DNA from: Verrucomicrobiota bacterium
Lineage (GTDB): Bacteria > Verrucomicrobiota > Verrucomicrobiia > Opitutales > Opitutaceae
Assembly (NCBI GenBank): GCA_003641745.1
Contig: QNAI01000066.1
Location: 1,367 to 17,366 of the forward strand
Length of the DNA stretch: 16,000 bases
Reading direction: 5' to 3'
Positions 4,586 to 6,930 of this stretch are shown here, in pieces. The notes below the pieces were generated by a model that saw nothing but the letters and a program-made list of their open reading frames with translations, was not told the origin of the DNA and did not search any database. Position 1 is the first letter of the stretch. The number at the start of each line of letters is the position of its first letter. The translations under genes and the position numbers were made by a program.

Positions 4586-5995
4586 TCACCTTTCTGCCCC
4601 GACCAGTTCCAGGTAATCACACAGGATCTCGATGTGATGATTGAACAGGGCGGAACTGAGACGATCGCTGACTTCGTATTGACCATCCCATCGCTTGCCG
4701 GGTTCGTACACCTTGTATCTGTCGCCCTTGACAATCCACCGGCCGTGTTTGTCCAGCGAATCAATGACCGCCACGACTTCCGGTCGGATGGCGTTCAGTT
4801 TCTCGGCGATCTCCTCAGAGGTCATTTCAGCGATCGGACGATAGATATAGGGGTCAACACCGGTCTCCCGGATATGATCAAAACGCTTTTCCCCATTCCT
4901 GATCCTTTCACTGAGGTCGGATTCATAGCCATATCCCGTGCGGCGTTCCAAGCTGAGTTCGTCGGTTGAGTCCACCCGGAAACGCCCACGATCATAGTAG
5001 AGCGCCCGGCCGGTTCCTATTTCGATGAATCGTGCCCAGAGTCCGTTGGGTAACCGGCTCTCTTCCAGCCAATCGAGGGCATCGGGTATTGGTTCGAGGT
5101 AATCCTCGTTCCCGAATTGGGCGAAGAGATCCATCAATACCTGAACGTTCTGGATCGTGACCAACGGGCATACCGCAGGAGGTTCGAACGTACGGGCCCA
5201 AGCCGGTTGAAGAAAGTCATTGTATTGTTGCGCCCATCCGGGCTGAGGCGGTGGAAGCTGGGACAGGATGATAAACCACCCCGTTTTTCGGACCGATTCC
5301 AGGAATTCATCGCGGTCGTAGTGCCGGTGAGCTGCGAGCATAACCGACAGGCAATCCGCGATACCATGGTCATTGTAGGTGGCGAAGTCGTGGTAGTTTC
5401 GTTGTCTGGGATATTTGTGTGGCCAGCCGCCATGCTCCATCTGTGCATCGAGCATCATGCTGAGAGATCGCTCGACGGCCTTGTGGAGAACCGGATCATC
5501 GACCACCTGATCAAGGGTCATCAGGAAGCGAATGGCGCTCTGGGTCTGGTCATCATCAAAACTTACCTCGTCACCTCTTGGTTGATCGAAGTGGATCTTA
5601 TGATCCCATCCACCCAGATCGTTCTGACCGCGGATCAGGGCGGATGCCGCGTCGTTCGCCGCTTCAAGGAATAATGGGTCGGGGAGCACTTCGTACGCGT
5701 GCAGGAAACTCATTCCGACGCTCGGAGTGCCGGGAGGCTGCACCTCAATTGTCCGATCATCCATCGGCGGGCCTTCTCCCCACCTCGTCTGAAGATCGAG
5801 CGAATAGTAGTAACCGTAGCCACCTTCGATGGCGATCGAGTGAAAGAAATCGATGCCGCGTTCGAGTGCATCCTCCGCCCGTATGGCGAGTTCATGATCT
5901 GACACCGGATTTGCGGGTGCCCCGTAGGCAGAAATGGTCAGAACAACTGCCAGGGACAGCGCGAATCCGCAGGTGATTGGAGTATTTCTTAACAT
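4586..5995 (-). CDS. PL10-like pectate lyase (PelA/Pec_lyase family), secreted
   Basis: Track ORF is 4586..6085. I place the start at the ATG at 5995 (MLRNTPITCGFALSLAVVLTISAYGAPA), which gives a signal peptide. Repeated GGW/GGY motifs (GGYGYYYS, LGGWDHK, HGGWPHKYP) and NGLWARFIEIGTGRALYYDRG resemble the alpha/alpha-toroid PL10 family (WARFYE..RPIF..RDG). Confidence 0.7.
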   Translation of the reverse strand: MLRNTPITCGFALSLAVVLTISAYGAPANPVSDHELAIRAEDALERGIDFFHSIAIEGGYGYYYSLDLQTRWGEGPPMDDRTIEVQPPGTPSVGMSFLHAYEVLPDPLFLEAANDAASALIRGQNDLGGWDHKIHFDQPRGDEVSFDDDQTQSAIRFLMTLDQVVDDPVLHKAVERSLSMMLDAQMEHGGWPHKYPRQRNYHDFATYNDHGIADCLSVMLAAHRHYDRDEFLESVRKTGWFIILSQLPPPQPGWAQQYNDFLQPAWARTFEPPAVCPLVTIQNVQVLMDLFAQFGNEDYLEPIPDALDWLEESRLPNGLWARFIEIGTGRALYYDRGRFRVDSTDELSLERRTGYGYESDLSERIRNGEKRFDHIRETGVDPYIYRPIAEMTSEEIAEKLNAIRPEVVAVIDSLDKHGRWIVKGDRYKVYEPGKRWDGQYEVSDRLSSALFNHHIEILCDYLELVGAER

Positions 5996-6124
5996 AGGTT
6001 GGGAGATGAGTTTTACCACAGAGAGCACCGGGGGAACAAGGAGTTGATTGGGGCATAGGGACCAATGATCGTCCGACTCATGCATTCGCTGCCGATCTCA
6101 GATTCCCTTCGTGACCTTATGTTA

Positions 6125-6168
6125 CCTTCCGTGTGAAAGATTCTTCGGTATGGATTGAACACGGAAGG
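6125..6168. other. Perfect 10-bp hairpin in the PL10 upstream region
   Basis: ccttccgtgt (6125-6134) pairs with acacggaagg (6159-6168) around a 24-nt loop, followed by a G8 run at 6177-6184. Function unknown. Confidence 0.5.
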
Positions 6169-6208
6169 AGCGATGCGGGGGGGGAGGGACTCGGCTCTAG
6201 ATTCTGAA

Positions 6209-6389
6209 TGAACCACAGAGGACACAGAGGACACAGAGAATAAAAAGGAAGAGGCTCGGAATGAAAATTATGTTTGGAGAATTTTATATACTGAGTCTCG
6301 TCAGATGGAATAGCTGGTAAGTGAGGTTCCTGCGCGAGCGAATGGCCTGTTTCCTGAACCTCTGTGCTCTCTGTGTCCTCTGTGGTTCA
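6209..6389. repeat. Family-2 long inverted repeat built of tandem 9-mers, enclosing an AT-rich 119-nt insert
   Basis: 6209-6229 tgaaccacagaggacacagag is perfectly complementary to 6369-6389 (21 bp). After 2 mismatches, 6232-6238 pairs with 6360-6366. The arms are tandem 9-mers (ccacagagg acacagagg acacagaga). My hand count for 6241-6300 in the interior is 20/60 G+C. Confidence 0.85.
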
Positions 6390-6396
6390 AAAAACT

Positions 6397-6930
6397 TCAG
6401 TCAATAATAAGCCCCATGCAGAGGGTGTCGTGGTATTTCCCATCCACGCGAATTGCGTTCTGAATGCGGCCCTCTCGTTCGAATCCTTTGCGCTCATAAA
6501 GGGCGATCGCCCGTTCGTTGTCGGCTCGGGCCTGGAGGTTGATTTTGGTCACCACGCCGCCGCTGCGAGCCCAGGCAAAAAGTGAATCGAGCAGGAGTGA
6601 ACCGATCTGCATTCTCCAGTAATGTTTTCGCACGGATATCCCGAACTCGCCGGCGTGACATCTGCGCGGTCGATGACCGCTATTGAACCCGAGGGTACCG
6701 ACGATCTCGTCGCCGACCCATGCGATCAGGAAAAGACTGTTGGCGGACTGACGCTTTTCATCCAGGAAATCAGCCTCTTCCTCTTCGGTCATGCCAAGCT
6801 CGCCACGCCCGAAATCGAGGAAGTCGGTTTCCCCGGCAACTTCGTTGATGTATTCCAGTACAGCTTTGGCGTCGGCGGCCTCCGCCTCGCGGACGGTCAC
6901 CTCGGGTTCGGATCCACGGCTCGTTTTCAT
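6397..6930 (-). CDS. GNAT-family N-acetyltransferase
   Basis: 177-aa ORF. The acetyl-CoA binding region RRCHAGEFGISVRKHYWRMQIGSLLLDSLFAWARSGG and the ERAIALYERKGFE motif are typical of GNAT. It starts 33 nt downstream of the sulfatase gene on the same strand. Confidence 0.85.
   Translation of the reverse strand: MKTSRGSEPEVTVREAEAADAKAVLEYINEVAGETDFLDFGRGELGMTEEEEADFLDEKRQSANSLFLIAWVGDEIVGTLGFNSGHRPRRCHAGEFGISVRKHYWRMQIGSLLLDSLFAWARSGGVVTKINLQARADNERAIALYERKGFEREGRIQNAIRVDGKYHDTLCMGLIID

Follow-up and report, generated by a model that had tools for sequence, protein, structure and literature searches.

Inverted repeats standing beside bacterial genes have been described in several guises, and it is with these that we compare the element studied here, a long hairpin at positions 6204-6400 of a 16,000-nt stretch of contig QNAI01000066.1 (hereafter the window, meaning that whole stretch), which lies in the 3' region of a gene for a GNAT acetyltransferase in a member of the Opitutaceae (Verrucomicrobiota). 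The Correia elements of Neisseria are non-autonomous, have inverted ends, TA target duplications and a conserved interior, and belong to a single genus. The intervening sequences of 23S rRNA (S23p, PF05635) lie within rRNA helices, from which RNase III removes them. Repetitive extragenic palindromic (REP) sequences and REPINs are said to go together with genes for REP-associated tyrosine transposases (RAYTs), as reportedly set out by Nunvar and colleagues in 2010 and by Bertels and Rainey in 2011.

Two published descriptions concern arrays of short units. In Geobacter metallireducens, 21 paired "class 2" sites were proposed to be bound by a regulator of the integration host factor (IHF) or HU type (Aklujkar et al., 2009; PMC2700814), and in Xanthomonas convergent arrays of the heptamer GGGAATC were found to be intergenic and stable between related species (Rehm et al., 2015; PMC4692102). 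Among the papers searched, the repeats alone are on record, as "regulator binding sites" (2009) and as heptamer arrays (2015).

The window element is well supported as a member of a family of hairpins with CACRGAG arms. We further consider it probable that 6204-6400 is a gene-less derivative, resembling a miniature inverted-repeat transposable element (MITE), of a hairpin cassette that in its full form carries a gene of the GxxExxY family. The window copy is an ordinary and probably inert member; it is the family itself that is unusual.

The window element and its family

The element consists of two arms enclosing a loop, with short flanks outside them; none of the following features is assigned to a strand.

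6204-6208: outer flank CTGAA, pairing with 6396-6400 in the minimum-free-energy fold
6209-6238: left arm, TGAAC + CACAGAGGA / CACAGAGGA / CACAGAG (from sequence and repeat search)
6239-6359: loop (the 'insert'), 121 nt, 42% G+C, unique in sequence and containing an imperfect inner hairpin (from the fold and loop comparisons)
6360-6389: right arm, CTCTGTG / CTCTCTGTG / TCCTCTGTG + GTTCA (from sequence and repeat search)
6390-6400: A run (T run on the - strand) and outer TTCAG overlapping the GNAT stop (from sequence and the fold)

The outer 21 nt of the arms (6209-6229 and 6369-6389) are perfectly complementary, by direct inspection as well as by repeat search, and the repeat extends to 30 nt (6209-6238 and 6360-6389) at 93% complementarity, with two mismatches at 6230-6231. 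It is the longest inverted repeat anywhere in the window, and a tandem-repeat search of the window resolves each arm into three 9-mers with a CACAGAG core. An earlier, sequence-only reading of the window had described the perfect 21-bp repeat, the resumption of pairing at 6232-6238 with 6360-6366 (which falls within the 30-nt repeat), the three tandem 9-mers per arm and the pairing of the outer CTGAA with TTCAG at 6396-6400, and all of these were recovered here. The A run that it placed at 6389-6394 is present and reads, on the strand of the gene, as a T run ahead of the hairpin; the tandem 9-mer construction is indeed common to the arms of another repeat of the window, its 'family 1'; and its hand counts of G+C in 60-nt samples (20/60, 33/60 and 42/60) were exact on recount. 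The insert, given there as 119 nt, measures 121 nt between the 30-nt arms. Left flanks like CTGAA(N)TGAAC also occur at two sister copies in this genome (C21b and C119).

Folded as RNA on either strand and set against 200 shuffles, the 213-nt stretch had a z score of -7.7 on the + strand (-84.4 kcal/mol) and of -7.0 on the - strand (-72.5 kcal/mol), and no shuffle was as stable in either case (0/200 each). The minimum-free-energy fold of the + strand also pairs the stretch from 6246 onward into the loop. The G+C content of the loop is 42%, that of the whole window 55.6% and that of the remaining part of the intergenic region 52.6%. Rfam gave no gathering-score match across the window and none at E <= 1 for 5950-6450.

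The arm is not unique to this site. A search of the genome (G000) with the 21-mer arm found 29 matches at <=3 mismatches and none for the reversed control, which places the element in a repeat family, as the sequence-only reading had surmised, and clustering of the CACAGAG heptamers resolves about 20 loci. At six of them, the window copy included, the arms are extended to TGAAC/GTTCA and the loops, of 120 to about 400 nt, are mutually unrelated; 13 others are short hairpins sharing one conserved 27-nt loop. One CACAGAG hairpin (G000:C116:2688-3140) has a whole palindrome of a third family nested in its loop (TTAAGGGCACCTTGATTAATTGGAG ... inverted); this palindrome has a G+C-rich interior of its own of about 230 nt and a short form on C67. 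A second gene-less family has arms of the TCTCG-CGCRGAG octamer and unique loops of 60-150 nt:

Copies of the second gene-less family: C6:54731, C26:20900, C27:15573, C42:7585, C103:4888, C140:5903 and C172:1263

Three of these copies have chimeric arms, with CGCAGAG on one side and CACGGAG on the other, and one arm changes its period from 9 to 8 nt inside the array.

Beyond this genome, 13 of the 24 other genomes examined from the family contain the 17-mer core of the arm, as do two more families of the order; the controls gave 0 throughout. The only other genome of the genus gave no match. An exact scan for the triple array CACAGAG-NN-CACAGAG-NN-CACAGAG, over one genome per prokaryotic species, gave matches on at least 120 genome contigs, spread over more than 12 phyla; by our own estimate, chance would account for about 0.3. 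Among the matches listed are Proteobacteria, Acidobacteriota, Chloroflexota, Planctomycetota, Bacteroidota, Cyanobacteria, Firmicutes, Actinomycetota, Spirochaetota, Verrucomicrobiota and others, and the same scan of IMG/VR matched at least 120 viral contigs, a single contig carrying as many as six arrays. Convergent pairs make up about 60% of the genome loci listed. Their loop lengths form a continuum of 13-298 nt, within which the window's 121 nt falls in the upper third and no preferred length around 120 nt was found. Every long loop has a G+C content at or below that of its own flanks, and no credible loop homology between unrelated loci was found by blastn, tblastx or local alignment of the long loops.

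What is kept across phyla is the heptamer together with a complementary outer extension of 2-5 nt; the 1-2-nt spacers between heptamers vary and are often unpaired, and CACGGAG variants occur within the arms of relatives. Such conservation of the heptamer alongside variable spacers points to recognition of the heptamer sequence rather than to selection for a stem alone. Because the long-loop copies share their arms only, the arm plus insert is not the unit that is copied. BLAST searches with the whole element gave only a 36-nt arm match in a Pseudoalteromonas replicon among plasmids and nothing among phages, and there was no insertion sequence (IS) match.

Genes between the arms and turnover at fixed sites

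This genome has three GxxExxY (PF13366) and four PF05635 genes, all bracketed by inverted arrays of short tandem units, one unit per gene.

Bracketed genes: C172:96-461, C63:13198-13602, C12:12755-13187, C305:2825-3199, C35:8206-8586, C4:77867-78244 and C21:26357-26716
Units of the bracketing arrays: CGCAGAG, ACAGGATT, CACGGAG, GAGGCTT/GAGGACT, GGATTTG, GAAGTAA and GATGTAA

The GxxExxY gene on C12 lies between CACGGAG/CACAGAG arms (CACGGAGG-CACAGAGA-CACGAAGA), the left arm running into the ATG and the right arm starting 3 nt past the stop codon. That on C172 has CGCAGAG arms, and at least six gene-less long-loop hairpins with the same arm stand elsewhere in the genome, as do chimeric arms in which arm types and 8- and 9-nt periods are mixed. 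In a metagenome set, 66 of 80 homologues of the C12 protein (64-100% identity, collected with their flanks) have CRCRRAG arrays within 90 nt.

Because the arms of the window have a 9-nt period, 401 genomes of the phylum were scanned for period-9 CACRGAG arms 370-400 nt apart. Such pairs were present in 17 genomes, of which eight belong to the same family, against 0 in the control, and 14 of the 17 arm pairs enclose an open reading frame (ORF) for a GxxExxY protein (hidden Markov model E = 1e-32 to 1e-47), the ATG usually touching the arm. The left arm of L369, from the same order, reads CACAGAGGA-CACAGAGAG-CACAGAG and is the exact array of the window's right arm. In a metagenome-assembled genome of the Planctomycetota (L101), a GxxExxY gene without its middle forms a 135-nt loop between period-9 arms that abut the start and stop of the internally deleted gene; this locus is an intermediate form between gene-bearing and gene-less copies.

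The C12-type protein matches TIGR04256 (137 bits). A sequence search found no solved structure for a GxxExxY protein; in an AlphaFold2 model built on 42 homologues (predicted local distance difference test score, pLDDT, 93.5) the best PDB folds are Cas4 SSO0001 (E = 4e-4, TM 0.54) and lambda-exonuclease-type enzymes. The model thus suggests a PD-(D/E)XK nuclease fold with its D...ExK residues intact, and D67, E77, K79 and the G-x-x-E-x-x-Y-E motif are invariant in the 42 sequences. A survey of PD-(D/E)XK proteins lists the function of PF13366 as "unknown" and notes "multiple transfers" (PMC3424549). Judged by titles and abstracts, none of the papers found to mention GxxExxY concerns CACAGAG repeats.

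Comparison of fixed sites between relatives indicates how such elements may behave over time. At two sites that carry a hairpin here (C21a and C21b), the genome of the same genus (G001) keeps both flanking genes without one, the gap being 60 nt there vs 290 nt here at the former and 105 vs 441 nt at the latter; C21b is itself nested in an outer hairpin with TTAAGAG-type arms, and nested hairpins are common in long loops elsewhere. An orthologous hairpin in the congeners G004 and G334 has a right arm identical at 27 of 27 positions between flanks that are about 82% identical, and its loops differ by a central 124-nt stretch holding arrays of another arm family. Another site shared by these two genomes has different arm families, and a site common to another congeneric pair, G035 and G328, has one arm family with unrelated loops (216 vs 23 nt) and different spacers. 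Taken together, these results say that elements come and go, that the content between the arms is exchangeable, and that new hairpins arise preferentially at the apex of one already present behind a stop codon.

Placement behind stop codons and competing explanations

The window copy, like most members of the family, lies close behind a stop codon. The nearest annotated features are:

6397-6930, - strand: GNAT acetyltransferase gene (PF00583, E = 2e-18)
6012-6038, + strand: degenerate solo arm, TTTTAC CACAGAGAG CAC... (repeat families D1/D2 and I3/I4)

The GNAT stop codon (TGA, - strand) occupies 6397-6399, leaving 7 nt between stop and arm. The oriented copies in this genome all lie 12-49 nt from a stop codon, and at the loci of relatives an ORF on the same strand ends with its stop codon 1-25 nt before the forward arm. 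In a survey of 50 pairs of the cross-phylum set, classified by a crude longest-ORF rule, 16 stand between convergent genes, 24 in tandem and 10 in divergent contexts; the nearest stop codon in the convergent and tandem classes is mostly 1-50 nt away, and in many convergent cases the element occupies the entire gap between the genes. Readings of the arm as an extracytoplasmic function (ECF) sigma -35 box (TGAAC) or as a 5' leader were dropped because the forward arm follows stops and does not precede starts. The GxxExxY genes are co-oriented with the gene upstream in 58 of 83 cases, which is not clearly above the usual co-directional share by our own rough expectation.

Mismatches within the arms bear on whether the hairpin is used as RNA. 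In 25 tandem-context pairs read in the sense of the upstream gene, 33 mismatches are of the G.U type vs 17 of the A.C type (binomial p = 0.033); in pairs without an assignable orientation the counts are 52:47. The excess of G.U is a hint, fitting arms that would pair within the transcript of the upstream gene.

The next gene downstream of GNAT on the - strand encodes a pectate-lyase-like protein and probably starts near 5995, not 6085: the later ATG is the one followed by a signal-peptide-like sequence, and the gene is called there in another assembly. The solo arm lies 175 nt to the left of the element, within the long version (leader) of this ORF. Between the element and this gene, the window also has at 6125-6168 a perfect 10-bp inverted repeat (CCTTCCGTGT ... 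ACACGGAAGG) with a 24-nt loop and no U tract. A consensus terminator scan of 5800-6600 found no terminator-like site, and a promoter scan gave a single weak promoter-like site, inside the GNAT gene. An identical GNAT protein is present in four other assemblies, of which three reach past the element and have it unchanged; the contig of the fourth stops within the arm. In an assembly made independently from the same population (L158, a contig of logan:SRR6478915), the contig end, at 3566, falls exactly inside the arm of the element. Hairpins of this kind fragment short-read assemblies, and their copy numbers are therefore underestimates. The genes of the host include sulfatases, the pectate-lyase-like protein, a PF14376 haem-binding protein and an ECF sigma factor, and this content, with the pattern of relatives, suggests a marine polysaccharide degrader.

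We suggest the following scenario for the element as a gene-less derivative of a GxxExxY cassette. The arms, inverted arrays of the CAC(A/G)GAG heptamer every 8-9 nt, would be the conserved and presumably recognised part, and the content between them would be exchangeable: 13-90 nt, unrelated filler of 100-300 nt, nested hairpins with arms of other families, or a GxxExxY gene of about 125 codons, whose start and stop codons abut the arms in the full-size form. With content of this kind, the 121-nt AT-rich insert would be the loop or the remains of cargo, and not a separate insertion. At the end of a presumed sulfatase-GNAT transcript, the 30-bp stem would form a very stable 3' hairpin, which may serve as an end-protecting or terminating structure or as a substrate of RNase III. 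The GxxExxY nuclease may drive spread and turnover by working on the arm arrays, which for empty copies would mean in trans, by analogy with REPs and RAYTs or with the empty alleles of a homing-endonuclease gene, and the arrays could double as recombination handles.

More tentatively, and in our view somewhat unlikely in this full form, the whole family could represent a homing-like exchange of cassettes across phyla, driven by the nuclease, with the heptamer arrays as handles and the GxxExxY PD-(D/E)XK enzyme recognising hairpins or cruciforms. The enzyme would cut CACRGAG arrays behind stop codons, and repair would then copy, swap or delete whatever lies between the arms. If true, such exchange would explain identical arms with unrelated cargo, nested arm families and turnover at fixed sites; it would also provide a first mechanism for the large GxxExxY family and amount to a mobile element that has neither transposase nor target duplications.

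Several observations speak against deriving the window element from a GxxExxY cassette. The relationship in trans between nuclease and arms is proposed from the shared heptamer, the mixed 8- and 9-nt periods and the 14 cassettes. An 8-nt period prevails among the gene-bearing relatives of the C12 protein (144 of 153 array steps near the metagenomic homologues), and the window has a 9-nt one. Of the loci listed with period-9 triple arrays, 120 from genomes and 120 viral, one of the former and none of the latter has the gene nearby, so that gene-less copies vastly outnumber gene-bearing ones; no PF05635 gene was found near CACAGAG triple arrays in the 240 loci listed. The window loop shows no significant remnant of a GxxExxY gene, its profile score being a hint and no more: the best frame reaches 1.1-2.4 bits, as do 2.1% of random genome segments, with the weak alignment on the C-terminal region of the profile (positions 96-113, LG-x4-FGE), and the positive control L101 scores 11 bits. 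As DNA, the loop was compared with 17 arm-bounded regions (14 of them intact cassettes), and 3 of 34 tests gave p <= 0.05, near chance. No U tract lies 3' of the hairpin on the strand of the gene, and the G.U excess could also stem from a transcription-linked C-to-T mutation bias. Finally, no empty site was found for the window's own copy, as G001 has only a GNAT of 66% identity and no synteny, and the three assemblies that extend past the element are identical there, with no empty or altered allele.

Among the other explanations, the one that fares best, although we judge it improbable, is an RNA element that serves the host and is not mobile, be it a terminator lacking a U tract, a 3'-end stabiliser or an RNase III site for the operon upstream, with the heptamers read by an RNA-binding factor of the host. 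Its position 1-50 nt after stop codons, often filling the whole gap between convergent genes, its very stable stem, the excess of G.U over A.C in the sense of the upstream gene, and the right arm that is fully conserved (100%) between flanks of about 82% in one orthologous comparison are what such an element would lead one to see. However, it is patchy among close relatives, with empty sites in the congener, more than 12 phyla, and viral contigs too, have the same heptamer, the arm family differs at one orthologous site, there is neither a U tract nor an Rfam family, and the arms bracket a nuclease gene. In an intrinsic terminator the transcribed strand has a U tract after a G+C-rich stem; here the T run precedes the stem on the strand of the gene. 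The sequence-only reading had allowed that other copies might be short-looped terminators at 3' ends and the insert unique junk. Many short-loop copies at 3' ends do exist and the insert is unique, but the copies are not ordinary terminators, because they have no U tract, the heptamer is found across phyla and there is a cognate nuclease gene.

We give still less weight to a MITE in the classical sense, mobilised by a transposase whose gene lies at another place, for instance one of eleven ORFs of about 330 codons in this genome that have an N-terminal Y1 (IS200/RAYT-type) transposase domain and are about twice the usual length. The idea draws on the inverted ends, many copies and non-coding interior, on the presence of these Y1_Tnp ORFs, and on the 13 short-loop copies, which sit at a fixed position in a repeat of about 230 nt. 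That repeat is copied whole, occurs as two subfamilies with copies up to 96% identical, and has its end module upstream of one Y1 gene.

Y1_Tnp ORFs, examples among the 11 loci: C222:736, C130:203, C16:603 and C19:32147
Copies of the ~230-nt repeat: G000:C172:6127-6366 and 12 more (C3, C4, C6, C36, C63, C67, C90, C108, C139, C185, C220)

This 230-nt repeat may be an IS200-type miniature element that captured the hairpin. TTTTTCT follows its hairpin on one strand; its 70-nt end module lies about 220 nt upstream of the Y1_Tnp ORF at C16:603 and occurs alone on C104 and C125. A further palindromic repeat, of 65 nt and unrelated to the CACAGAG arms (L005:2441-2505; G000:C21, ~17646-17710), has about 40 matches on both strands of the same-genus genome G001. 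Against a classical MITE, the long-loop copies share arms only, the gene found between arms encodes a PD-(D/E)XK-type protein and no known transposase, and none of the 11 Y1 ORF positions coincides with a CACAGAG array locus, although no dedicated adjacency scan was run. There is also no target-site duplication, as the sequence-only reading had remarked: at the window copy the outer flanks are inverted, not direct, and none is visible at the sister copies in the genome either. No transposase was seen among the window ORFs scanned, again as had been stated. Of the label "MITE-like" given in that reading we therefore keep the sense of a gene-less derivative of a gene-carrying element, and not that of an element with target duplication, transposase partner and common interior.

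We regard as very doubtful that the arms are paired DNA sites for a nucleoid or global regulator of the IHF/HU type, as proposed for the class 2 sites of G. metallireducens. Each of those 21 pairs has arrays of three TCTCCGTS[Y] units in tandem, on opposite strands and a variable distance apart (PMC2700814), and a conserved heptamer with variable spacers fits recognition of a specific sequence; yet the Geobacter proposal was made without binding data, the elements are located after stop codons and not in promoters, and a conserved host regulator would not predict the spread across phyla and into viral contigs or the presence and absence in congeners.

The loop has one small ORF:

6261-6320, + strand: 19-codon ORF MKIMFGEFYILSLVRWNSW, preceded by AAGGAAGAGG (ATG with AAGGAAGAGG 8-10 nt upstream)

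The weak alignment to profile positions 96-113 falls in this ORF, which has no Pfam match and is possibly a relic of the 3' end of a nuclease gene, or a product of chance. At a locus of G035 (L022, G035:C1:2082239-2083497), a 66-codon ORF at 502-767 on the - strand fits exactly between CACAGAG arms; its product has a two-helix membrane look, and the corresponding site of the congener G328 has just 23 nt of loop. Despite the placement of AAGGAAGAGG ahead of its ATG and this membrane-like counterpart in G035, an expression cassette for a 19-residue hydrophobic peptide, for example one that is type I toxin-like with translation controlled by the stem, can practically be set aside, as the ORF runs opposite in strand to the flanking genes, the promoter scan yielded none for it, no other loop preserves it and it matches no family.

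Comparison with described systems

Correia elements share with the present family their inverted ends and their position next to genes, and their RNA forms long hairpins that RNase III can cleave; the present family differs in having no duplication, unrelated interiors and a huge taxonomic spread. The 23S rRNA intervening sequences are likewise a long stem of inverted arms enclosing a small ORF or nothing, and all four genes of their family (PF05635) in this genome are bracketed by inverted short-unit arrays, whereas the window element stands behind a protein-coding gene. The Xanthomonas arrays are also tandem heptamers, often as two convergent arrays on opposite strands, but their unit is a different, G-rich one, which was studied as a quadruplex former and for which no associated gene was described.

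By its architecture, the window element belongs with the Geobacter class 2 sites. Both have three tandem units of 8-9 nt, paired on opposite strands at variable distance, and both are intergenic and number some dozens per genome; the reverse complement of the class 2 consensus, ...CACGGAGA, is the CACGGAG variant, one base (A for G) from CACAGAG, which is also present in arms here. The description of class 2 makes no link to GxxExxY genes, to placement behind stop codons or to a distribution across phyla.

In its logic, the family most resembles the REP/RAYT systems, and also MITEs with an autonomous parent. As with REPs and RAYTs, there are dispersed extragenic palindromes mostly behind genes, a gene between inverted repeats, and many orphan copies for each gene-bearing one. 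The two nevertheless part company at their defining features, because the present family has no Y1 partner as judged by contig positions, no target duplication and no common interior; of the features of a MITE, the terminal inverted repeats are present, and a target duplication and a homologous interior or transposase parent are not. REPs are lineage-specific short imperfect palindromes and their gene encodes a Y1 HUH transposase, whereas the arms described here are heptamer arrays in more than 12 phyla with freely variable loops, and the gene encodes a protein with a predicted PD-(D/E)XK nuclease fold. If the partnership between nuclease and arms is real, it would constitute a REP/RAYT-like system built on a different enzyme, with a bearing on how the 3' ends and terminators of bacterial genes are remodelled.

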